A DNA stretch of 9,671 nucleotides from a virus (lineage: Duplodnaviria > Heunggongvirae > Uroviricota > Caudoviricetes), in IMG/VR virus record IMGVR_UViG_2681813205_000018, positions 1-9,671 of that record. One strand, 5' to 3'. The notes under the pieces were generated by a model. That model was not told the DNA's origin. It made no database searches and was given only the letters and a program-made list of their open reading frames with translations. Positions 1-9,671 of this stretch are shown piece after piece. Both the position numbers and the translations under genes were made by a program. Position 1 is the first letter of the stretch, and every line of letters begins with the position of its first letter.

Positions 1-94
1 CATACGCCTCAGGCTGGCTACTTAACCCCTGACCACTGCCGGGTAACTCGAAGTATTGCCCTGCGTTCTGTGGGGCGGGGTGGGTTTATGGATA

Positions 95-150
95 CAATTT
101 ACAAATTAAAATTTAACTGGTCAACATGTTTATTATTAAATTTGTAATTG
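95..150 (-). promoter_or_regulatory. OL/PL-like operator and leftward promoter region
   Basis: Imperfect inverted repeat CAATTTACAAATTAAA (95-110) / TTAAATTTGTAATTG (136-150). On the minus strand a sigma70-like -35 TTGACC (rc of 119-124) and -10 TAAATT (rc of 96-101) with a 17-nt spacer point leftward out of the window. Shares the exact 14-mer TTAAATTTGTAATT with the repressor/cro intergenic region (1378-1391). Confidence 0.35.
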
Positions 151-192
151 CGGGCTGTTGCATCAGTCCCAAAATGGGACTACTATACAGTT

Positions 193-495
193 ATGAAGAT
201 TATCTCAGTTAAAACACTCAGGGATTTTTGGGCGGAGAATCCTGATGCAGAACAACCGCTAAGGGCATGGGTGGATGAGGCGGCAAAAGCTGACTGGAAA
301 AGCCCAGCAGACATTAAGGCACAATACCGAACGGCCAGTATATTGAAAAACCGGCGCGTGGTATTCAACATAAAAGGTAATCATTACCGTTTAATTGTTG
401 CAATTGCGTATCAGCGAGGATGGGTATTTGTTAAATTCATCGGAAACCACAAGGAATACGATGCTATTGATGCTGATACCATCGAACTGGAGTAA
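193..495 (+). CDS. higB: Type II toxin HigB (RelE-fold mRNA interferase family)
   Basis: Same frame as track ORF 148..495, but started at ATG 193 because the track start is a TTG. About 100 aa. Alignable by eye to E. coli HigB (N-terminal I..K.L.D, central VFN..GN..R.V, C-terminal HKEYD). Toxin-first gene order with an HTH antitoxin gene 2 nt downstream. Confidence 0.8.
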   Translation: MKIISVKTLRDFWAENPDAEQPLRAWVDEAAKADWKSPADIKAQYRTASILKNRRVVFNIKGNHYRLIVAIAYQRGWVFVKFIGNHKEYDAIDADTIELE

Positions 496-497
496 GC

Positions 498-857
498 ATG
501 AACATCAAACCTATTCGTACAGAGCAAGATTATGAAGCCGCGTTGCGTGCTGTTGAACCCATGTTCGACAATGAGCCCGAAATTGACACGCCTGAGGGGG
601 ATTTTTTTGAGGTGATGTGTTTGCTAATAGAGGAATATGAAAAAAAACATTATCCCATTGAGCCACCATCCCCAATTGAAGCTATAAGATTTCGCATGGA
701 ACAGCAGGGGCTGACTGTGAAAGATTTGGAACCCGCAATTGGGAAAAAAAATCGGGTTTATGAGGTGTTGAATGGTACCAGAAGCCTTACGTTACCAATG
801 ATTCGCCGTCTTCATAATCAATTTGGTATCCCCCTGGAAAGCCTGGTTGGATTATAA
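498..857 (+). CDS. higA: Antitoxin HigA (XRE-family HTH)
   Basis: 119-aa ORF starting 2 nt after the higB stop. C-terminal HTH segment LTVKDLEPAIGKKNRVYEVLNGTRSLTLPMIRRLHNQFGIP is alignable to the HigA HTH region. Confidence 0.8.
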   Translation: MNIKPIRTEQDYEAALRAVEPMFDNEPEIDTPEGDFFEVMCLLIEEYEKKHYPIEPPSPIEAIRFRMEQQGLTVKDLEPAIGKKNRVYEVLNGTRSLTLPMIRRLHNQFGIPLESLVGL

Positions 858-872
858 AATCTGCTAGTCATT

Positions 873-921
873 TGCCTGATGCTCGTTCCAGAAAAGGAAT
901 GCATCAGGCAGTTTTGTTTTT
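873..921 (+). terminator. Candidate intrinsic terminator after higBA
   Basis: 10-bp inverted repeat TGCCTGATGC (873-882) / GCATCAGGCA (901-910) with inner TTCC/GGAA pairing, followed by GTTTTGTTTTT. Lies between the convergent higA and repressor genes; the 3' arm overlaps the repressor stop codon. Confidence 0.45.
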
Positions 922-1296
922 CTGCCGCAGTAACTCTTCAAGTTTCCGTTTATAGAAATCGCGTTTTTGCTCCATATCACGAATGATCTGCTCTGCGTCG
1001 CTTTGAGGTAACTCATCTAAAAGCGATATGATTTTTCGTTGTTGTTCTGTAAGTTGCGGTTGGTTGTCATTACTGGATACAGCCATTTTATCGCCGAGAG
1101 TTTCTTCTTCCATAAAGAACCAATGGACGGGATGTTGTGAGAGCTCTGCTAATTTTTCCAGTTTATCCATTCTTGGCATCACGCCTTTCAACCAACCTTG
1201 CACGGATTGGGGTTTTACACCAAGACGTCTTCCCAGCTCTGACTGGTTTATATTCAATTCCTGCAACACCTGCTGAAGGCGTTTTACAAAGATCAT
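904..1296 (-). CDS. Prophage repressor, Cro/CI-type HTH (RacR-like)
   Basis: Minus-strand ORF. ATG at 1294-1296 is preceded by GAGGGG; the track start at 1302 is a GTG. N-terminal HTH QSELGRRLGVKPQSVQGWLKG and a charged helical C-terminal tail resembling RacR-type repressors as I recall them. Divergent from the cro-like gene. Confidence 0.7.
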   Translation of the reverse strand: MIFVKRLQQVLQELNINQSELGRRLGVKPQSVQGWLKGVMPRMDKLEKLAELSQHPVHWFFMEEETLGDKMAVSSNDNQPQLTEQQRKIISLLDELPQSDAEQIIRDMEQKRDFYKRKLEELLRQKNKTA

Positions 1297-1338
1297 CACC
1301 ACCCCTCGTAAACTAGTTCCGCGATCCTACAGAAAAAA

Positions 1339-1395
1339 TTGATAAGTGGCATTACAAATAGAAGTTGAAATTTAAATTTAAATTTGTAATTATCG
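1339..1395 (+). promoter_or_regulatory. OR-like operator/promoter region of the immunity switch
   Basis: Intergenic region between the divergent repressor and ydaS-like genes. Palindromic half-sites TTACAAAT (1352-1359) / ATTTGTAA (1382-1389) around an AAATTTAAATTT core. Candidate rightward promoter: -35 TTGAAA (1365-1370), -10 TAATTA (1387-1392). GGAGGG RBS at 1413-1418 precedes ATG 1423. Confidence 0.4.
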
Positions 1396-1422
1396 GTGTC
1401 ATCGTAAAGTTCGGAGGGAAAC

Positions 1423-1683
1423 ATGCAAAAAAGTACTCAAGTGAAAATCCTGTCAATAATGAGCCAATCAGAATTAGGGCGTCGTCTTGGTAAAACACCG
1501 CAAACCATAAGTGGGTGGTTTAAAAAACGAGTGCCAGCGGAGGAGGTTATACCAGCATGTGAGGCGCTTGACTGGGGAGTAACTCCGCATGAATTGCGCC
1601 CTGATAAATACCCTAATCCAACCGATGGTTTACCTGTTGAGTATCAGGCTAACGCACAAGCAGCGGCGGGAGTTGATTCATGA
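1423..1683 (+). CDS. ydaS: Cro-like HTH regulator, YdaS family
   Basis: 86-aa ORF with a strong RBS and an HTH (SQSELGRRLGKTPQTISGWFKK). Occupies the cro position, divergent from the repressor. Its stop overlaps the next start (ATGA at 1680-1683). Confidence 0.75.
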   Translation: MQKSTQVKILSIMSQSELGRRLGKTPQTISGWFKKRVPAEEVIPACEALDWGVTPHELRPDKYPNPTDGLPVEYQANAQAAAGVDS

Positions 1684-2117
1684 AAATCAAGCATGAGCAC
1701 ATCCGCATGGCGATGAATGCGTGGCTGCTTTATCCGAGGGTAGGGCGCAAAAAAATCGCTGATGATATAGCGACAGCATATTTTGAGCTTGAAATGACTT
1801 ATCCACCAATGCATGACACCTCTACGACAGAGGGTATTGGATTGAACATACAAAATATTTTTCGCTGGCTTGAAAAGGATACGCCTGATGCTGTTGAAAA
1901 AATTCAGGCACTAATTCCAGCTATCCTGACTGTTCTTCCGCGTGAACTGCGTTATCACCTCAGTATTTTTGACACTGTTGAGCGCCGTGCATTACTGGCG
2001 GCCCAGGAAGCGTTGAGCACGGCAATTGATGCGCATGATGATGCAGTCCAGGCAGTTTACCGGAAAGCGTATTTCAGCGACGGCGGGTCATCCGGCGAGT
2101 CTGTTGTGGTGCATTGA
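1680..2117 (+). CDS. ydaT: YdaT-like protein (cII-position, Rac prophage toxic protein family)
   Basis: 145-aa ORF translationally coupled to the ydaS-like gene. N-terminus MKIKHEHI and C-terminal RRALLAAQEALSTAIDAHDDAVQAVYRKAYFS match my recollection of E. coli Rac YdaT. Confidence 0.75.
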   Translation: MKIKHEHIRMAMNAWLLYPRVGRKKIADDIATAYFELEMTYPPMHDTSTTEGIGLNIQNIFRWLEKDTPDAVEKIQALIPAILTVLPRELRYHLSIFDTVERRALLAAQEALSTAIDAHDDAVQAVYRKAYFSDGGSSGESVVVH

Positions 2118-2203
2118 TATTTATGCCAGACCCCTGCTGATTCTGTTGATTGGGGAATCACAGAATATCACCAGAGGATGGTTCGTCACAAGATGAGGCA
2201 ATT

Positions 2204-3214
2204 ATGGCCGCATTACCATACATGCAACTGTACATAGCTGATTACCTGGCTGACACCATGCATTTGTCCGCAGAGGAGCACGGTGCGTATTTGTTGCTGA
2301 TGTTCAATTACTGGCAAACAGGGAAACCAATACCTAAAAACAGGCTGGCAAAAATTTCCCGTCTGACTAACGAGCGATGGGCTGATGTGGAACCATCCTT
2401 GCGGGAGTTTTTTTGCGATAACAGCGATGAATGGGTGCATCTTCGGATTGAGGAAGATCTGGCATCAGTCAGGGAAAAATTGACCAAAAAATCAGCCGCC
2501 GGAAAAGCATCTGTTCAGGCCAGAAGAAGCAGAAAGGAAGCATATGTTCAAACAAAACAAGAGAGAGATTTAACAGGTGTTCAAACAAATGTTGGTGTTG
2601 TGTTTGAACATGACGCAAACACAAAAGCAACTAATAAAGATACAGATCTAAAAGAATTAAACCCCACACATAACGTGCGTGAACGCGAGAGTATTCCGAC
2701 CAGTGAGTCGCATGGTGCGCCGTTGCAGACAGCCGAACCTGAATACCTGGACGGCATGAGCGAACCGATCGGGAAATTTTCGATGACTACTGTCTGGCAG
2801 CCGTCGCCGGATTTTCGACAACGGGCAGCAGTGTGGGGTATGGCTCTGCCTGAGCCGGAATTTACACCTGCTGAGCTTGCCGCATTCCGGGATTACTGGA
2901 TGGCGGAGGGGAAGGTTTTCACGCAGGTTCAGTGGGAGCAGAAATTTGCCCGCCACGTGCAGCACGTCAGGGCACAGGTAAAACCAGTCAGCAAGGGGGT
3001 AAGCCATGCAGCATCAGGTGGCACGGCATCACGGGCAGTTCAGGAAATCCGGGCAGCACGCGAACAGTGGGAACGTGAAAACGGATTTATCAGCAACGGA
3101 AACGGCCTGGAAGCTGTGGGAGCTTATGGGGGAGGTGTATTCGAACCGCTGGACTCAGAAGAACGGGGCCGCACCTTCGAAGCTCTGGATTGCCCAGATT
3201 GGTGCGATGACTGA
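2204..3214 (+). CDS. ydaU: Replication initiator, O-like (YdaU/DUF1376 N-terminal domain + DnaT-like C-terminal domain)
   Basis: Frame of track ORF 2150..3214, which starts at a TTG. Chosen start is ATG 2204 (MAALPYMQLYIADYL) with GAGG 7 nt upstream. N-terminal DUF1376-type domain, a low-complexity linker, and a C-terminal FTPAELAAFRDYWMAEG segment resembling the DnaT DNA-binding domain. Immediately precedes the P-like gene. Confidence 0.7.
   Translation: MAALPYMQLYIADYLADTMHLSAEEHGAYLLLMFNYWQTGKPIPKNRLAKISRLTNERWADVEPSLREFFCDNSDEWVHLRIEEDLASVREKLTKKSAAGKASVQARRSRKEAYVQTKQERDLTGVQTNVGVVFEHDANTKATNKDTDLKELNPTHNVRERESIPTSESHGAPLQTAEPEYLDGMSEPIGKFSMTTVWQPSPDFRQRAAVWGMALPEPEFTPAELAAFRDYWMAEGKVFTQVQWEQKFARHVQHVRAQVKPVSKGVSHAASGGTASRAVQEIRAAREQWERENGFISNGNGLEAVGAYGGGVFEPLDSEERGRTFEALDCPDWCDD
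2545..2610. repeat. Candidate origin iterons inside the O-like gene
   Basis: 10-mer TGTTCAAACA occurs directly at 2545 and 2578 and inverted (TGTTTGAACA) at 2601, followed by an A-rich stretch (2615-2660). Lies in the inter-domain linker of the O-like initiator, as ori-lambda lies within O. Confidence 0.3.
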
Positions 3215-3668
3215 ACAGCAAATCCGTCTGGTCTGCCGTCAGTGCATGGACCGCTGCCGGGCGGGTGAAACGTGGCCCCCGGACCTGGCTGAGTTTGTTG
3301 CGCTGATTTCGGAGAGTGGGGCAAATCCATTTGGTCTTACGGTGGATGCCGTGATGGAAGAGTACCGGCGCTGGCGCAATGAATCCTGGCGATACGACGG
3401 GAGTGATAAATACCCGTGGCCACAGCCTGTGCTGTACCACATCTGCCTCGAAATGCGTACCAGAGGGATTGAGCGCCAGATGACGCAGGGTGAGTTAAAA
3501 CTACTTGCAGAACGGCAACTGACGAAATGGGCAAAGCATGTTGGTAACGGGATGAGTGTTCCGCCAGTGCGACGACAACTGGAAGGGGCGAAACACCCGC
3601 AAGGGCCAACGCCAATTGAGCGGCTGAAACAGGAATACGAACGCCGGAAGGCAGCTGGTTTTATTTGA
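3126..3668 (+). CDS. Replication protein P-like (DnaB helicase loader)
   Basis: By-eye alignment to lambda P as I recall it: PPDLAEFVA vs PSPGQFVA, YPW motif, and a C-terminal LT..EL...A...L.......G...P.PV.Q pattern. Start is uncertain: ATG 3126 (GGGAG upstream) is chosen; ATG 3006 would overlap the O-like gene by about 200 nt; ATG 3207 overlaps the O stop. Confidence 0.6.
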   Translation: MGEVYSNRWTQKNGAAPSKLWIAQIGAMTEQQIRLVCRQCMDRCRAGETWPPDLAEFVALISESGANPFGLTVDAVMEEYRRWRNESWRYDGSDKYPWPQPVLYHICLEMRTRGIERQMTQGELKLLAERQLTKWAKHVGNGMSVPPVRRQLEGAKHPQGPTPIERLKQEYERRKAAGFI

Positions 3669-3701
3669 ATCTGAGAAACGATTTTGTCGGAGGAAATTTT
3701 A

Positions 3702-4418
3702 ATGGAAACCGTATTTGACGCACTGAAAGCACTGAAAAGAGCCTCTTCACAGGTAGTGGCGGCCCGCCTTGGAATCAGCCGTGAAGATGCGGTCAACGAA
3801 CTGTGGAAACTGAAGCGCCGCGGTGAAGCGGATAACAAGGGGTCGATGTGGTGGCTGATTCAGGCTGGTGAAAGTGAACCGGTGTCACCGGTACCGAAAG
3901 TGACAGCGCAAATGCTGACTGAGGCGATTGAACAACATGGCCCACAAACGGCGGATGAGCTGGCACTGATGTTCGGGATTACCTCCCGCCGGGCGAATTC
4001 ATCGCTGGCCATGGTAATCAGCAAAGGGCGTCTGATTCGCGTGAATCAGGGCGGTAAATTTCGTTACTGCATACCGGGCGCTGATTTACCGGCAGAGCCG
4101 GAAGCTGCATCCGTAGCGGAAACCGATGGTAAAGCCTTTCCTCAGCCAGCAGGTGTTGCGTTACCAGCTCGGGAAGCAGAAACACAGGAAGAAATAAAAA
4201 CGGAAAGTGTGGCGGTCACAGTGCAGTCACAGCCGTCGTTCACCAGAAAGCATCCGGATGGTCTGATTTTACCATCGCTGCATGTGGCTAACCGCGAGCT
4301 GCGCCGGGCAAAAGGTCAGGTTCAGAAGTGGGAGCGAGTCTGCGCCGCGCTGCGGGAGCTGAACAAGTGCCGGGATATTCTCCGGGATATTACCGCCACC
4401 AGAGAACAGCAGCGGTGA
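3702..4418 (+). CDS. Hypothetical phage protein with two winged-helix-like segments
   Basis: Track ORF 3684..4418 starts at a TTG. ATG 3702 has GGAGG 7 nt upstream. Two HTH-like stretches ([20 protein letters not shown] and [22 protein letters not shown]). Family not recognised. Confidence 0.55.
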
Positions 4419-4450
4419 GTGGGTGGAAGACGTGGTGCCGGGCGGAAATC

Positions 4451-4732
4451 ATGATACTCCGGCAGTGTGCGGGAACGATGAAGGTAAAAAGCGTTGGCGC
4501 ACTTATCGGACGAACTGAAGCGGCAGTGAGAACGAAGGCACGGGAGCTGGGCATCAGCATGATGTTACGTGGTGATTTTCACCCGTCGGCAAAATATTCT
4601 CAGCGTGATATTGAGCTGGCGCGGCAACTGCATCAGAGAGGCATGCAAAGAAGGGAAATTGCCAGAAAATTAGGCATGCCGCTGCGCATAGTGAATAACT
4701 ACGTTTATTTCGACAGGAGGGTGTCTGCGTGA
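4451..4732 (+). CDS. Hypothetical small HTH protein
   Basis: Track ORF 4328..4732 starts at a GTG and overlaps the previous gene. First in-frame ATG after the upstream stop is 4451; ATG 4478 is an alternative. C-terminal QRREIARKLGMPLRIV resembles a sigma-70 region 4 / resolvase-type HTH. Confidence 0.45.
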   Translation: MILRQCAGTMKVKSVGALIGRTEAAVRTKARELGISMMLRGDFHPSAKYSQRDIELARQLHQRGMQRREIARKLGMPLRIVNNYVYFDRRVSA

Positions 4733-4956
4733 AAATCCTGTATCAGGATTACGGCCCGGTGGGGCAGGTGGTTATCAGCAGTACTGTAATGGAGTTTCGG
4801 AAGCATAACCGTGTGGTGGATGCTGTGCTGTTAACCTGTCCGGGGATATCGGCGAGTCGTGCAGGTGTGTTTATTATGAAGACGAAATTATATGGCAGTA
4901 AGGCGTGGATAAAGAAGGCGTATCGTGTAGCGTTGCAGGAGGTTAACAGTGAGTGA
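4729..4956 (+). CDS. Hypothetical protein
   Basis: GTG start at 4729 overlaps the upstream stop (GTGA) and has AGGAGGG 8 nt upstream. 75 aa. No recognisable family. Confidence 0.45.
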   Translation: MKILYQDYGPVGQVVISSTVMEFRKHNRVVDAVLLTCPGISASRAGVFIMKTKLYGSKAWIKKAYRVALQEVNSE

Positions 4957-5260
4957 AATTAAAGAAATGCCGGTAGTTCGTGACGGATATGGCTACTGGA
5001 CACATCCTGAATATGAAAAATTCTGTGATGGTCGGGAATATATTTCAACGGAAGAGTTTAACGCCTGGATGGAGGAAAATAATCTTCAATACGTCCTCTG
5101 CTTCAGAGATGAAGGATGTGCTGACCTTGATGCGTGTGATGCTGATATTTCTGCATGGGAACCGGAACGACCAGAGGGCGATGGCTGGTTTATTGGTTCC
5201 ATTCATGATACGGAAGATGGCCCGGTTTGTGTCTGGTTGCGAAATAAGGCTGAAGCATAA
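4949..5260 (+). CDS. Hypothetical acidic phage protein
   Basis: GTG start at 4949 with AGGAGG 6 nt upstream, overlapping the previous stop. 103 aa, Cys/Asp-rich. The competing track ORF 4980..5285 is in another frame and lacks an RBS. Confidence 0.5.
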   Translation: MSEIKEMPVVRDGYGYWTHPEYEKFCDGREYISTEEFNAWMEENNLQYVLCFRDEGCADLDACDADISAWEPERPEGDGWFIGSIHDTEDGPVCVWLRNKAEA

Positions 5261-5359
5261 AGGCGATAAACCAACTAACAACTAAATACTGAAGATTTAA
5301 ATCAGAAACGATTTTTATTAAATCCTTAACCGGAGGGATTCCTGCACCCTCAGAACATC

Positions 5360-5390
5360 AGGAGGCCGCCCGAAAGGGCGGTAAGAAATG
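5360..5390 (+). promoter_or_regulatory. Shine-Dalgarno plus hairpin translation-initiation structure
   Basis: AGGAGG (5360-5365) lies 22 nt upstream of ATG 5388, but a 6-7 bp GC hairpin (CCGCCC 5366-5371, GAAA loop, GGGCGG 5376-5381) between them would bring the SD to about 6 nt from the start codon when folded. Confidence 0.4.
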
Positions 5391-5606
5391 AAACATTATT
5401 TAGAAAAAAATTACCCACGAAAGAGCAGAACAACAGAGTTTCTGTTTTTCATTCTGTTTATAGTGTTGATGATACCGATATCCCCGCTATTACTGGTCTG
5501 GATAATTGGAAGGACATTTGAACCAGTTATTGAGCTATATACCGATGTGACATGGGAATCATTCAGCGCACTGCACAATAAAATTAATCCGTATAAGGAA
5601 AACTGA
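5388..5606 (+). CDS. Small single-pass membrane protein (hypothetical)
   Basis: 72-aa ORF in a visibly AT-rich segment. One strongly hydrophobic stretch, FLFFILFIVLMIPISPLLLVWIIG, after a basic N-terminus. Confidence 0.5.
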   Translation: MKHYLEKNYPRKSRTTEFLFFILFIVLMIPISPLLLVWIIGRTFEPVIELYTDVTWESFSALHNKINPYKEN

Positions 5607-5607
5607 T

Positions 5608-6165
5608 ATGAGCACTATTACCAGAGAACGCGCGGAGATTAAATCATACATCACAGGCTTCCTGAGCGACTCGGCGCACGATAACAAGTCTTCAGACAGC
5701 CTGCTGGCTAATGTGTTTCGTATCGCGCTGGCATCACTGGAAGCAGAGCCGATAGCAATGGTAGTGCCTGATGAAATGGATTTGCTTACCTGCCATCTCG
5801 ACGGTGTAACTAAAACATATGCTGATGGCTGGAACGCCTGCCGCGTCGCCATGCTTCAGGCCGGAAACTTTCGGGAAAATAAGAATTCGTCAACCAACAA
5901 TTTTCGGGAAATCTCGGAAACGTCAACCAGATCTCCGATAACTCTGGATGGCTGGATAAGCTGTACTGAGCGAATGCCTGAAAAGAGCCAGAACGTGCTT
6001 ATTTCGATGAATATCGATAGCGAGGCTGGGCCATTAATATATTCCGCACGCTATCTCGGAGGCACGTTCCGGCGCGGAGGTATAGCAGTTAGTCCGGGTA
6101 ATGATCTTAGGCAAGCAACCCACTGGATGTCGCTACCAGAACCGCCGCAGGAGGTGAATCAATGA
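5608..6165 (+). CDS. DUF551 domain-containing phage protein
   Basis: ATG 5608 is 1 nt after the upstream stop, with AAGGA upstream. C-terminal WISCTERMPE...THWMSLPEPP matches the DUF551 signature as I recall it. Confidence 0.65.
   Translation: MSTITRERAEIKSYITGFLSDSAHDNKSSDSLLANVFRIALASLEAEPIAMVVPDEMDLLTCHLDGVTKTYADGWNACRVAMLQAGNFRENKNSSTNNFREISETSTRSPITLDGWISCTERMPEKSQNVLISMNIDSEAGPLIYSARYLGGTFRRGGIAVSPGNDLRQATHWMSLPEPPQEVNQ
5866..5931 (+). repeat. Imperfect 33-bp tandem duplication inside the DUF551 gene
   Basis: AACTTTCGGGAAAATAAGAATTCGTCAACCAAC (5866-5898) and AATTTTCGGGAAATCTCGGAAACGTCAACCAGA (5899-5931). Encodes an 11-aa repeat NFRENKNSSTN / NFREISETSTR. Confidence 0.6.
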
Positions 6166-6245
6166 CCTGGCCTGAAGCATTCACAACGGTAGGAATTGCG
6201 ATGGCGGTGGCGCTGGTGGTGTATTCGATTTGCCGCTGGGGATAA
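6162..6245 (+). CDS. Unannotated 27-aa hydrophobic peptide
   Basis: ATG 6162 overlaps the DUF551 stop (ATGA) and has AGGAGG 8 nt upstream (6148-6153). Encodes MTWPEAFTTVGIAMAVALVVYSICRWG, a single predicted TM helix. Absent from the ORF track because of its length. Confidence 0.35.
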   Translation: MTWPEAFTTVGIAMAVALVVYSICRWG

Positions 6246-6503
6246 AAACGGTTTGCGGGAAAAGGATAGTTAAGTAGAATTGCAGCGGGTGCTTGAGGCT
6301 ATCTGCCTCGGGCATGAACACCAACGGCAGATAGAGAAAAGCCCCAGTTAACATTACGCGTCCTGCAAGACGCTTAACATTAATCTGAGGCTCAATCCAT
6401 GCTGAACACATGTAGGTTAGCCTCTTACGTGCCGAAAGGCAAGGAGAAGCAGGCTATTGTTAACACCAAGCTGTAATGTCCCCTTTGAACCATTCTAAAA
6501 TGT

Positions 6504-6530
6504 CCCCAGACAATTCTCTGGGGGATTTTT
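6504..6530 (+). terminator. Terminator-like hairpin immediately upstream of the transposase start
   Basis: Perfect 7-bp stem CCCCAGA (6504-6510) / TCTGGGG (6517-6523) with a 6-nt loop, then ATTTTTC, ending 1 nt before ATG 6532. Confidence 0.4.
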
Positions 6531-6531
6531 C

Positions 6532-7872
6532 ATGATCAAAGAGACTGTTACGATGAGTCATAAGGAACTCCACCGACTTCAGATTATTCAGGAGTCAATT
6601 AATCGACATATTACTCAGGAACAAGCTGCGGCACGCATTGGCATTTCTATTCGGCAGGTTAAACGTCTGGTGCAACGGTATAGAAATGAAGGGCCTTCTG
6701 GTCTGGTTTCCCACCGACGTGGAAAGCGTCCTAATAATTCCTTTTCTACTGAATTCAGAGCAACAGTAATTTCACTCCTCAAAGGCCGTTACGCTGATTT
6801 TGGACCTACGTTTGCGTGCGAAAAATTGCGCGAGATACACGGTTTATCTTTATCCGTTGAAACTCTCAGAAAGTGGATGATAGAAGAGGGGTTATGGCGT
6901 GAACGCCGTCGTAAAATTGCCCGTATATATCAACGCCGCATGCGACGACCATCTTACGGTGAACTGATCCAGATTGATGGCTCACCTCATGACTGGTTTG
7001 AAAATCGAGGCCCCAGATGTACACTGATCGTTTTCATTGATGATGCCACCAGTGCGTTGATGGCGTTGCGTTTTGTGCCTGCTGAAACAACCCGGGCTTA
7101 CATGGAAACCCTCCGGGGTTACCTTGATGATCATGGCGTACCGCTCGCTCTCTACTCTGATAGACACAGTATATTCAGGGTAAATAACCCAGAGCGGGAA
7201 GGTGAGCTGACCCAGTTCACTCGTGCGATAAAGACACTGGGCATCGAGCCAATCCATGCCAACAGCCCGCAGGCAAAAGGGCGGGTAGAGCGCGCCAATC
7301 AGACACTACAGGACAGGCTGGTCAAAGAAATGCGGCTTCAGAATATCAGTGATATTGAAACAGCAAATGCATGGTTGCCGACCTTTATTGAAGCCTATAA
7401 CAACCGGTTCGCTACGTCGCCTCGTACTACTGATAATGCTCATCTTGATGTGCACCATTCTGAAGAGGAACTGGGTTATATCTTCAGCCTACAGGCGAAG
7501 CGCGTTCTGTCTAAAAATCTCACTTTCCAGTACAAAAGCAGTGCGTTTCAGGTACGCAGTGAGGGCCGGGGATATCGACTTAGGCATTCGGTTGTTACTG
7601 TATGCGAGAACTTTGACGGTGAAATTAACGTTCTGTATGACGGGAAAGCGCTGGGCTGGGAAAAGTATGTTGATGGCCCGGAGCCTATACCACTGGATGA
7701 TGAAAAGAGTGTCCATGAACGAGTGGATAATGCCCGTATTGATTTACGCTCAAAATACTATGTTAAACCTAAAGCTGACCATCCCTGGCTTACGCGCCGA
7801 ACGCAAAGTCATCAGCAAGTTAAGCCCCCGAAGTTACCTAAAAAGAAGCCTGATCCCGATAAAATAGATTGA
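6532..7872 (+). CDS. DDE transposase, IS481/ISNCY-like (rve integrase core, N-terminal HTH)
   Basis: 446-aa ORF. N-terminal HTH (ITQEQAAARIGISIRQVKRLVQRY). Catalytic triad candidates in LIQIDGS, LYSDRHS and AKGRVERANQ with integrase-like spacing. Pattern resembles IS481-family transposases (IVFIDDATS..., PQAKGRVE). Alternative start ATG 6553. Confidence 0.8.
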   Translation: MIKETVTMSHKELHRLQIIQESINRHITQEQAAARIGISIRQVKRLVQRYRNEGPSGLVSHRRGKRPNNSFSTEFRATVISLLKGRYADFGPTFACEKLREIHGLSLSVETLRKWMIEEGLWRERRRKIARIYQRRMRRPSYGELIQIDGSPHDWFENRGPRCTLIVFIDDATSALMALRFVPAETTRAYMETLRGYLDDHGVPLALYSDRHSIFRVNNPEREGELTQFTRAIKTLGIEPIHANSPQAKGRVERANQTLQDRLVKEMRLQNISDIETANAWLPTFIEAYNNRFATSPRTTDNAHLDVHHSEEELGYIFSLQAKRVLSKNLTFQYKSSAFQVRSEGRGYRLRHSVVTVCENFDGEINVLYDGKALGWEKYVDGPEPIPLDDEKSVHERVDNARIDLRSKYYVKPKADHPWLTRRTQSHQQVKPPKLPKKKPDPDKID

Positions 7873-7926
7873 AACCAAGATCGATTCGGTTGAGTGCATA
7901 TCCATTCATAGGGTAGATTCTTAAGT

Positions 7927-7993
7927 CGCGTTTCTGGTGTTCATTTTCGGGGGGGGGGGTTACTTGTTTTACCGGGGATATGCCAGAAACGCG
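7927..7993. repeat. Perfect 11-bp inverted repeat enclosing a G11 homopolymer
   Basis: CGCGTTTCTGG (7927-7937) and its exact reverse complement CCAGAAACGCG (7983-7993), separated by 45 nt that contain eleven consecutive G (7949-7959). Confidence 0.6.
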
Positions 7994-8190
7994 CTGAGTC
8001 AGTCTGGGCGGTGCGCGTAATGGGACGTTATGGTAAATACCATTCTGCAATAACTATCCATGTATAGATCATCCTTTATCTCCGTATGGCATAACCCATC
8101 AGAATCCATTAAGCATGACAAAACCTTCTTTATAAATAGCACTTTCAGTAGTACTTGATGTAGAAAATTGATTGGCATTTGTGTTTTTAC

Positions 8191-8219
8191 TTGATATCTC
8201 CGTGATATACTGATATTAA
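8191..8219 (+). promoter_or_regulatory. Candidate sigma70 promoter for the two-gene cassette
   Basis: -35 TTGATA (8191-8196), 17-nt spacer, -10 TATTAA (8214-8219) in an AT-rich intergenic region about 50 nt upstream of ATG 8273. Confidence 0.3.
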
Positions 8220-8272
8220 TTAAAGCGTAAATTATCTAAAACTAGATTTTCAATATGTTATAGGTGGTTCAA

Positions 8273-8806
8273 ATGCCAGGTACTAGGTGTGTTACTGTTC
8301 TTACTGCTCGTGGAATTACTGAGATTTTAAAAACAGGTGGAAGCAAAGCCTGGAGACTCAATGCAACCCATGCAGGAAAATGTTCGTATGTTGTTTGCGT
8401 TCAGAACTCGAAGATTGATTGGGGAACCCAGGAGGCAAAGCATCACCATGCTTTTATGATTGGCCGTATTTCTGGGATTAGCAGGATTCCAGACCATCCC
8501 AAGAAGCGTTGGATAATCAACATTGATTCTTATGCTGAGATTGATATCCCTGACCAATGGGATGGAAACCGGAATCCGGTTTCTTACCGAAACCTTGAGG
8601 ATATGGGGATAGATCTTGATACTCTCGATTTTAAACCTGTTGGTCATATTGTATCTGGAATAAAACAGACTAGTGGTGACGAATACGATGAGTATGAAGA
8701 AGTTGATGTCAGCGATAGACCTTTAAGCCTGAAAGAAGCTAAGGCTGGTCTAGCACTTCATTTTGGCGTCAATGAGGATGACATTCAGATCACTATTAAG
8801 GGGTGA
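8273..8806 (+). CDS. Hypothetical protein (unrecognised family; first gene of IS-flanked cassette)
   Basis: ATG 8273 with AGGTGG 5 nt upstream; the track start at 8264 is a GTG. 177 aa: basic N-terminal domain of about 120 aa, acidic linker (DEYDEYEEVDVSD), short C-terminal segment (LSLKEAKAGLALHFGVNEDDIQITIKG). AT-rich codon usage unlike the flanking phage genes. Confidence 0.6.
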   Translation: MPGTRCVTVLTARGITEILKTGGSKAWRLNATHAGKCSYVVCVQNSKIDWGTQEAKHHHAFMIGRISGISRIPDHPKKRWIINIDSYAEIDIPDQWDGNRNPVSYRNLEDMGIDLDTLDFKPVGHIVSGIKQTSGDEYDEYEEVDVSDRPLSLKEAKAGLALHFGVNEDDIQITIKG

Positions 8807-8811
8807 CCTTT

Positions 8812-9396
8812 ATGGAATCATTCTCTGTTGAGCATTGGTTACCACAGGCTACTGCTGGAGATAGTCAGGCTAGATTTTATTTGGGGAAGATATTCTCATG
8901 CGGGCTGGGTGTTCATCAGGATTATAAGCTGGCTATATACTGGTTTCAGCTTGCAGCGGAGCAAGGCCATGATGATGCCCAGTTTAATCTTGGGTGGGTA
9001 TATCATTTGGGGTTAGGTGGATATAAACATGTCCAAAAAGCGTCTGAATGGTATCAGAAGGCCGCTCTGCAAGGTCATGCAGAGGCTCAGTTTCATCTAG
9101 GAAGGCTGTATGCTTTCTCTTATTTAAGAAATGATGGGCTTGCAGTTGAATGGTTTCTCTGTGCCGCGAAGCAAGGCTATAGTAGTGCGCAATTTAAACT
9201 TGGCTGGATGTATCATCTCGGTATGGGCGTTGAGCAAAGTGACAGGCAGGCTTTCCATTGGTTTATTCGGGCTGCTGAGCAAGATCATGCAGGGGCTCAG
9301 GCATCTCTTGGTGAGATGTATAAGCATGGGTGGGGAGTCGAGCAAGACGAAACGATGGCACAGTATTGGTTTCGACTCGCAAGAACAATGCCATAG
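8812..9396 (+). CDS. Sel1-repeat (TPR-like) protein
   Basis: ATG 8812 with AAGGGG 8 nt upstream, 5 nt after the upstream stop. At least five tandem Sel1-type repeats (e.g. AIYWFQLAAEQGHDDAQFNLGWVYHLGLG; ASEWYQKAALQGHAEAQFHLGRLY; AFHWFIRAAEQDHAGAQASLGEMYKHGWGV). No signal peptide evident. Confidence 0.8.
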   Translation: MESFSVEHWLPQATAGDSQARFYLGKIFSCGLGVHQDYKLAIYWFQLAAEQGHDDAQFNLGWVYHLGLGGYKHVQKASEWYQKAALQGHAEAQFHLGRLYAFSYLRNDGLAVEWFLCAAKQGYSSAQFKLGWMYHLGMGVEQSDRQAFHWFIRAAEQDHAGAQASLGEMYKHGWGVEQDETMAQYWFRLARTMP

Positions 9397-9400
9397 CATC

Positions 9401-9424
9401 AAGCCCGCCCTGCGGGCTTTTTTA
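9401..9424 (+). terminator. Rho-independent terminator of the cassette
   Basis: 8-bp stem AAGCCCGC (9401-9408) / GCGGGCTT (9412-9419) with a 3-nt loop, followed by a T-run, 5 nt after the Sel1 gene stop. Confidence 0.7.
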
Positions 9425-9671
9425 TGTGTCAAGGCTAAGTTCAGATGTCCGTCGTAGGGCAAAGTTCAAATGTCCTCTCTGTGCCTATAACCTCTTCTGA
9501 GTAAAAGGTGAGGTGTACTGGCAATAGCGGACACTACCATTTGTTCTTTTTTTAAGCAGCCATCTGATGATATTTTTCCCTGAAGGCTGCCGGGGAGATA
9601 TTCCCCAGACGAGAGTGACGACGCTGACGATTGTAGAAAATCTCAATGTATTCCCGTATTACTGAGATGGC
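9425..9671 (-). mobile_element. IS3-family insertion sequence, 3' end (continues beyond window)
   Basis: Contains the C-terminal end of an IS3-family OrfB on the minus strand. Plus-strand TGTGTCAAGG at 9425 is consistent with an IS3-type ...CA terminus. Subterminal direct repeats AAGTTCAGATGTCC (9438-9450) / AAGTTCAAATGTCC (9463-9476). Exact end not established. Confidence 0.45.
9552..9671 (-). CDS. IS3-family transposase OrfB, C-terminal fragment (truncated by window edge)
   Basis: Minus-strand translation from the window edge reads AISVIREYIEIFYNRQRRHSRLGNISPAAFREKYHQMAA then stop (plus 9552-9554). The FYNRQRRHS.LG..SP..F motif is the conserved C-terminus of IS3-family OrfB transposases. 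Confidence 0.7.
   Translation of the reverse strand, partial: AISVIREYIEIFYNRQRRHSRLGNISPAAFREKYHQMAA

Follow-up and report, generated by a model that had tools for sequence, protein, structure and literature searches.

The window, a stretch of 9,671 nucleotides comprising positions 1–9,671 of the IMG/VR virus record IMGVR_UViG_2681813205_000018, covers the early-right region of a lambdoid prophage. Its replication and regulation genes include HigB/HigA, cI-like and Cro-like repressors, a DUF1376/DnaT replication protein and a lambda-P-like protein, and a nin-like block holds a DUF4014 gene, a DUF551 gene and the 27-codon open reading frame (ORF) analyzed here (Table 1). The HigB-type toxin and HTH antitoxin genes lie beside the cI-like repressor gene and form a second toxin–antitoxin module in this prophage fragment.

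Table 1 Features of the window and of compared loci. Positions with an L prefix refer to other loci; all others refer to the window.
Feature	Position	Strand	Basis or remark
HigB-type toxin gene	193–495	+	PF09907, E = 5e-33
HTH antitoxin gene	498–857	+
Upstream DUF551 gene, 185 aa	5608–6165	+	Pfam PF04448, 72.5 bits, E = 5e-20; RefSeq: DUF551 domain-containing protein
Putative adaptor at DUF551 3′ end	6140–6165; loci L148–L227; K-12 yfdS/yfdT L283:11835–11894
Shine–Dalgarno (SD) sequence AGGAGG	6149–6154	+	7-nt spacer to ATG; within DUF551 gene end ...PEPPQEV
Putative 27-codon microprotein gene, MTWPEAFTTVGIAMAVALVVYSICRWG + TAA	6162–6245	+	ATG 6162–6164, TAA 6243–6245; read directly
ATGA start/stop overlap of ORF and DUF551 gene	6162–6165	+	DUF551 stop TGA at 6163–6165
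Conserved N-terminal heptapeptide M-[T/S/N/I]-W-P-E-A-F, net charge −1	6162–6182	+	Column counts, 41 variants
Predicted transmembrane helix, residues 6–24	6177–6233	+	Kyte–Doolittle mean 2.11
Conserved C-terminal motif Y-S-I-C-R-W-G, net charge +1	6222–6242	+	Column counts, 41 variants
sok, 5′ part of hok/sok cassette	6287–6458	+	Rfam RF01794, 107.7 bits
IS1202-like ISEsa1 element	~6458–8039		Transposase 6532–7872
180-aa ORF	8264–8806	+	No Pfam match
Sel1-repeat gene	8803–9396	+	Five repeats, E = 5e-42
Sub-threshold Trp_leader match	9361–9425	+	Rfam, 25 bits versus gathering score 41
Antisense ORF, POCJ13 gp73	L229:1506–1634	−
Antisense ORF, Stx2 II ORF C38	L228:1001–1750	−
Tiny contig, Xanthomonas pisi	L132		431 nt
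Tiny contig, Acinetobacter idrijaensis	L140		369 nt

An earlier note on this DNA had described an AGGAGG ribosome-binding site, an ATGA overlap and a 27-codon frame, and all three can be read directly in the window. Across 77 distinct contexts of the ORF, ATGA was found at the start in every one (77/77), the upstream stop ends on the A of the ATG (TGATG or TAATG) in 11, and an SD tetramer (GGAG, GAGG or AGGA) is located 5–11 nt before the ATG, mostly at 7 or 9 nt, in 74. Codon 2 always begins with A because the overlapping TGA stop requires it. A stop/start overlap with an SD 5–11 nt upstream in the preceding gene is the layout of translational coupling, and these comparisons support an ORF arranged for coupling to its upstream gene. 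Generic coupled pairs with an ATGA or TGATG overlap display the same 4-nt or 1-nt overlap and the same SD within the upstream gene. Compared to these, the 27-codon ORF is mechanistically ordinary, and what stands out is the apparent use of the DUF551 3′ end as a universal adaptor for alternative genes. Termination–reinitiation at ATGA and TGATG overlaps is reportedly the topic of Huber et al. 2019.

In a translated search, 94 phage records matched the ORF at 59–100% identity. The records examined were ArgO145, 933W, VT1-Sakai, a 133–134-kb phage record, Stx2 II, POCJ13 and PhiR12_1, together with three RefSeq E. coli loci and a 98-kb plasmid. Every examined match begins 4 nt (or 1 nt) before the end of the upstream annotated gene, and all of them, in phage records, RefSeq loci and plasmid with no exception, are unannotated on their own strand. 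The ORF is 27 codons long in ArgO145, 933W, VT1-Sakai and the 133–134-kb record although the flanks differ. A degenerate DNA pattern for M-x-WPEAF run on viral contigs gave 125 matches, 109 of which measured exactly 27 codons. As the same 27-codon frame and junction recur in many contexts, the ORF goes beyond what chance would produce; its hydropathy rank by itself is only mildly unusual.

To quantify selection, the loci were pooled into a set of 153 instances representing 77–78 distinct contexts, 60 distinct DNA variants and 41 distinct peptides. Codon-position entropy was highest at third positions (0.85, compared to 0.49 and 0.30 at the other positions), which also took 99 of 181 substitution events. 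Parsimony on a neighbour-joining tree assigned 90 synonymous and 90 nonsynonymous events to codons 8–27, corresponding to a dN/dS of ~0.39 (binomial p = 3e-10), a value that indicates only moderate constraint and derives from many non-independent copies in closely related E. coli prophages. The two shifted frames gave dN/dS values of 1.20 and 1.48, and one of them contains stop codons in 47 of 56 sequences, so the synonymous excess is specific to the ORF frame. No RNA-structure signal was detected, as the predicted fold was no stabler than that of shuffled sequence (z = +1.19). Frame and length are conserved behind four upstream gene types and in front of ~10 downstream contexts. Conservation of the ORF, which the earlier note had proposed as a check, was therefore borne out both by frame-specific selection and by a sample of DUF551 loci described below. 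From these patterns, the 27-codon ORF is very probably a real protein-coding gene under purifying selection.

The gene is dispensable, since at least one natural pseudogene and disrupted alleles exist. In the pseudogene (ATGACCTGACCTG; L176, IMGVR_UViG_2802429244_000003), which lies directly behind a DUF551 stop, codon 3 reads TGA instead of TGG (W3 to stop), and a few other copies carry the disruptive changes V20E or G11R. No copy is present in lambda, phage 24B or the K-12 prophages Qin, CPS-53 and Rac; ribosome-profiling data from lambda and these K-12 prophages therefore cannot inform on its translation. A RIBOseq study of EHEC (Sakai) left out ORFs of <30 aa and duplicated ORFs by design, and none of the supplements searched, including the supplementary text of PMC11188072, contained the peptide.

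The earlier note had tied the ORF specifically to the DUF551 gene, a link that finds no support from either side. Upstream of the ORF, at least four unrelated C-termini were distinguished, namely diverse DUF551 domains, a coiled-coil end (...NDLKNIEQEVNR, for example 933W L0139), a ...KAMDYLKRNGLISAEDVLR domain and an EaA-like end. Conversely, when 80 DUF551 loci were sampled by a DUF551-domain alignment scan of viral contigs that made no use of the peptide motif, only 36 were found to precede the ORF. Eight of these 36 carry an altered N-terminal motif (altered forms in this sample were WPDAI, WSDVI, WRDAI and WPEAL) and still comprise 27 codons with a ...SICRWG end, and the L176 pseudogene also comes from this sample. 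At the remaining DUF551 loci the same CCGCCGCAGGAGGTG and stop/start overlap are followed by different genes, and K-12 yfdS–yfdT is another case of this linker with a different next gene. Because the linker also feeds other genes, the AGGAGG site is a generic adaptor of the DUF551 3′ end. The strong ribosome-binding site and overlap that had been attributed to the 27-codon ORF are thus present but not peculiar to it, as the same junction ends DUF551 genes that precede other genes. The DUF551 ...PEPPQEV end (CCGCCGCAGGAGGTG) doubles as SD and overlap for at least five different downstream genes, and resembles a universal adaptor for joining modules in lambdoid accessory regions.

Similarity between contexts stops at the stop codon of the ORF, leaving a conserved block that extends from the SD to the stop. 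Approximately ten downstream context classes were distinguished, among them a RelE/ParD pair on the opposite strand, xis-int, ea22-like genes and several hairpin-like sequences; hok/sok comes next in 44 of 153 instances (~29%). The ORF occupies a nin-like region in the window and an exo-xis/ea22-xis-int region elsewhere, and is also located on phage-plasmids. Judged by these comparisons, SD and ORF together act as a small mobile module that moves between early-operon positions, a portable protein-coding microgene of temperate (lambdoid) phages.

The 84-nt sequence was found in 1,634 of 5,426 complete E. coli genomes (~30%), at 3,110 places in all, with up to seven per genome and 163 on plasmids, and the microgene is retained in decayed prophages. 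A search with the exact motif pattern in one genome per species returned genuine 27-mers in Escherichia and Shigella only. Two copies of the E. coli Stx-phage type with a DUF551-type linker were seen on tiny non-enterobacterial contigs assigned to Xanthomonas and Acinetobacter (Table 1), and are most likely assembly contamination. A 133–134-kb record labeled Vequintavirinae carries a copy beside ea22/EaA-like genes; it may be a chimeric assembly and was not used to claim presence in virulent phages. Published phage 24B experiments on ea22 were considered as a possible disturbance of the ORF and rejected, because the DUF551-ended gene of 24B precedes a different gene and no copy is present.

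That the ORF is unannotated, as the earlier note stated, was confirmed by its absence from the RefSeq annotation. In GenBank, the exact peptide and several variants occur in a few records, only as 'hypothetical protein' or 'bacteriophage protein', and on the 98-kb plasmid (NZ_CP013030.1) a gap between annotated genes corresponds almost exactly to the ORF. Antisense ORFs have been annotated across the 27-codon gene in some phage records (Table 1); because selection is frame-specific on the plus strand, these are probably mis-annotations. The peptide showed no significant match to a Pfam, NCBIfam, PHROG or PADLOC family, and neither the peptide nor its immediate neighbours matched a PADLOC defence system. 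A borderline match to phrog_4612 was obtained for the peptide (16.3 bits, E = 0.019) and for a version extended upstream in frame (20.1 bits, E = 0.0012), and phrog_4612 could represent this ORF with a start codon wrongly predicted further upstream. In the literature searched, no paper mentioning the peptide was found, the strings WPEAF and ICRWG occurred in no relevant text, and the ORF goes unmentioned in the exo-xis papers.

The hydrophobic character of the product, also pointed out previously, stands: residues 6–24 rank at the top (2.11) of the 47 ATG-initiated ORFs of 20–40 aa in the six frames of the window. Small residues G11, A13, A15 and A17 are conserved in the helix with small-xxx-small spacing, and across the 41 peptide variants G11 is kept in 40, A15 in 39 and A17 in 38. 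Toward the C-terminus, Y21 is retained in 39 variants, C24 in 38, R25 in 37 and W26 in 40. The N-terminal tail has a charge of −1 in 40 of 41 variants and the C-terminal tail +1 in 35, while W3 and W26 flank the hydrophobic stretch 23 residues apart. The predicted peptide therefore combines a bilayer-spanning stretch with flanking aromatic and charged residues. From this composition, the product probably forms a membrane helix, and is most likely a tiny single-pass membrane protein. Gene, coupling and membrane helix together form the core of the explanation that we favour, and we consider this combination, taken jointly, reasonably likely.

In the mechanism that we propose, ribosomes ending the upstream early gene would reinitiate at the overlapping ATG (ATGA or TGATG, with an SD 7–9 nt upstream), so that synthesis of the peptide would accompany translation of the early operon after infection or induction. 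Insertion would have to be post-translational, since 27 residues would be released before leaving the ribosome tunnel. The peptide would then insert into the inner membrane as a single N-out/C-in helix with its acidic N-tail (E5) outside and its basic C-tail (R25) inside, so that W3 and W26 would each sit at one membrane interface. More speculatively, the G11/A13/A15/A17 face and the conserved termini could mediate sequence-specific packing with itself or with a host inner-membrane protein. On this basis we tentatively suggest, with less than even confidence, that the peptide may act as a partner-binding accessory modulator rather than as a non-specific membrane poison. A partner-binding role is favoured over a membrane toxin because no silencing apparatus accompanies the gene, several copies occur per genome and copies survive in decayed prophages; this preference is the weakest link of the argument. 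Between the two guesses of the earlier note, 'membrane regulator' reads as more plausible than 'small toxin'.

The main competitor to a modulator is a membrane-damaging effector that would depolarise or permeabilise the inner membrane when the early operon fires, resembling a type I toxin or serving abortive infection or superinfection exclusion. Size and composition are like those of known small hydrophobic toxins such as DinQ (27 aa), ShoB (26 aa) and TisB (29 aa), the small-xxx-small motifs could equally drive self-oligomerization, and toxin–antitoxin cassettes often adjoin the ORF, with hok/sok next in 44 of 153 instances and RelE/ParD on the opposite strand elsewhere. This proximity may, however, merely reflect a shared accessory-gene hot spot, and up to seven copies per genome and retention in decayed prophages speak against a toxin. 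The peptide has no Pfam or NCBIfam match to Hok/Gef or any other toxin family, nor a PADLOC match. Because the ORF overlaps the upstream gene it would have no promoter or leader of its own, and because the flanks are not conserved between contexts no antisense-RNA partner travels with it; the flanks compared thus lack the regulatory parts of a type I toxin, in addition to the missing family membership. The likeness to type I toxins, including the downstream Hok/Gef, is that of a short hydrophobic prophage peptide adjoining hok/sok in ~29% of instances. Unlike Hok/Gef, the ORF is without homology to that family, its own promoter, a fold-back structured leader and a travelling antisense RNA, and while Hok/Gef is silent, the ORF is predicted to be translated by coupling to the upstream gene. 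We therefore regard a toxic effector as unlikely.

Three further explanations dispense with an independent functional peptide. The ORF could serve, by −1 frameshifting or as the remnant of an ancestral fusion, to give a fraction of the upstream protein a C-terminal membrane anchor. Its frame is open for ~14 codons upstream of the ATG within the DUF551 gene, pipelines have named fragments such as GGESMTWPEAF... 'DUF551 domain-containing protein, partial', and the internal SD near the stop recalls the prfB frameshift site, in which an internal SD lies close to the stop codon. The 'partial DUF551' entries are, however, contig-edge fragments in the ORF's own frame. No protein carrying the peptide as an in-frame fusion was encountered. 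The peptide is missing from the 121-aa DUF551 proteins that fall into its 90% cluster; a fusion suggested by clustering with such 121-aa proteins from Shigella proved on inspection to be a chaining artefact. By eye, no canonical slippery heptamer was seen before the junction in the sequences read, whereas the ATG and its ideally spaced SD are conserved behind four unrelated upstream genes with differing last codons, and a second codon starting with A fits an ATGA restart. These points make an anchor very unlikely. Conservation might instead act at the DNA or RNA level, with the ORF incidental to a recombination linker, a terminator or a sequence upstream of the hok promoter. Lambdoid mosaic genomes do have conserved short boundary sequences, and the hok mRNA leader starts ~40 nt after the ORF stop (Rfam sok model from 6287), a position set by the Rfam model boundary only because the promoter scan flagged no hok promoter after the ORF. 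Against this, three-base periodicity and synonymous excess are confined to the ORF frame, length is fixed at 27 codons, hok/sok is missing from most ORF contexts and high-GC phages keep the motif with different codons. We consider DNA- or RNA-level conservation largely refuted by these comparisons and of negligible probability, and reject an RNA-structure explanation in view of the fold score (z = +1.19). It is also conceivable that the ORF is translated into a functionless peptide, with translation itself keeping ribosomes on the end of the early transcript against polarity or decay. The ORF is often the last before a terminator-like hairpin, and the pseudogene and disrupted alleles would be compatible with such a role. 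Yet the amino acid sequence itself is conserved (W3, G11, A15, Y21, C24, R25 and W26, with conservative hydrophobic replacements), dN/dS is 0.39 and equivalent short ORFs with the same N-terminal motif recur in unrelated phages, so a role in translation only is very unlikely. The reading that we prefer is thus a coupled gene whose product is probably a membrane helix.

Some matches in viral contigs of non-E. coli-like DNA (GC 0.40–0.66) likewise encode MxWPEAF followed by a hydrophobic stretch. A second scan, limited to codons absent from the E. coli copies and dropping the ATGA overlap as a requirement, yielded 49 matches. About 13 of these are ORFs of 21–56 aa with a hydrophobic helix and usually a basic C-terminal end, and they usually display a GGAGG-like SD and a stop/start overlap with the upstream ORF. 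Short and hydrophobic ORFs accounted for 22% of motif matches compared to 0.67% of other ATGs in the same contigs (p = 3e-14), and ORFs that were coupled as well for 8 of 49 (16%) compared to 7 of 11,784 (0.06%; p = 7e-18). Looser 'MxWPEAF + helix' ORFs were detected in phage contigs of 40–71% GC, with the motif kept in different codons at high GC. The invariance of MxWPEAF outside E. coli is partly circular because the scan imposes the N-terminal motif. Neighbours of the divergent ORFs include helicase and primase, sliding clamp or integrase genes, or a terminase downstream, which places these ORFs at early-module ends and not in lysis cassettes. A 65-aa ORF beginning MTWPEAFAIVGVAFATGASIAAVVWACVF... 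behind GGGAGG was also noticed in a Pseudobdellovibrionaceae MAG (L129, minus strand; pattern match on the plus strand at 7624–7655). It resembles the divergent viral members with the exception of a long polar tail, and may be a distant cellular or prophage relative.

As a speculation that we judge rather improbable, the E. coli 27-mer could be the local member of an unrecognised, phage-wide family of MxWPEAF microproteins (21–56 aa, with the heptapeptide, one helix and a basic C-terminal end, in phages whose hosts span ~40–71% GC and coupled to the gene that closes an early or replication module), in which the motif would dock onto a broadly conserved bacterial inner-membrane machine. If true, MxWPEAF docking would represent a new mechanism of host takeover or exclusion. 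The motif also offers a handle on relatives that length filters discard.

Several small bacterial proteins, including KdpF (29 aa), PmrR (29 aa), MgtS (31 aa), AcrZ (49 aa) and MgrB (47 aa), bind and modulate larger membrane proteins. The predicted peptide shares with them its size, a single hydrophobic helix, short charged tails and conserved small-residue positions that would suit helix packing, but differs from KdpF-type proteins in being phage-borne, mobile, multi-copy and without a fixed partner gene. There is no sequence relationship; the best NCBIfam match, KdpF (TIGR02115), scored 14.7 bits against a cutoff of 26.85. The Entero67K set, predicted conserved intergenic micro-ORFs of Enterobacteriaceae (PMC11188072), and the large phage small-gene catalogues covered in a review (PMC11323111) contain the same general class of ORF, unannotated and hydrophobic, evolving under purifying selection and with no Pfam domain. 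New relative to these resources are the way the ORF behaves as a module, its conserved coupling junction and the MxWPEAF motif shared across phages. The advance is modest, as predictions of conserved hydrophobic micro-ORFs in enterobacteria already number in the tens of thousands. The putative gene is nevertheless found in ~30% of complete E. coli genomes, frequently at more than one place, and in Shiga-toxin phages such as 933W and the Sakai prophages, while being absent from RefSeq and from the family libraries searched. Its recognition would correct gene annotation in the exo-xis and nin accessory regions of Stx phages, regions with genes that influence the lysis–lysogeny decision, and the peptide would be a compact, easily synthesized candidate for studying phage microproteins in the host membrane.

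Beyond the ORF, the hok/sok cassette of the window is cut inside the hok ATG by the ISEsa1-like insertion sequence (GCAGGCTAT|TGTTAAC, junction 6457/6458), and similarity to intact loci ends at 6457. The window retains the sok/mok leader but contains no hok coding sequence, which leaves an orphan antitoxin-RNA region. The same hok/IS junction was found in 789 complete E. coli genomes and marks a Qin-type prophage, of which K-12 keeps only a right-hand IS remnant annotated as ydfW. Further downstream, the 180-aa ORF overlaps the Sel1-repeat gene by 4 nt; this pair lies outside the Qin-type post-IS sequence of other genomes, since the match to these ends at ~8039. The sub-threshold Trp_leader match at the end of the Sel1-repeat gene comprises a GC hairpin and a T-run, and is probably an intrinsic terminator following that gene.
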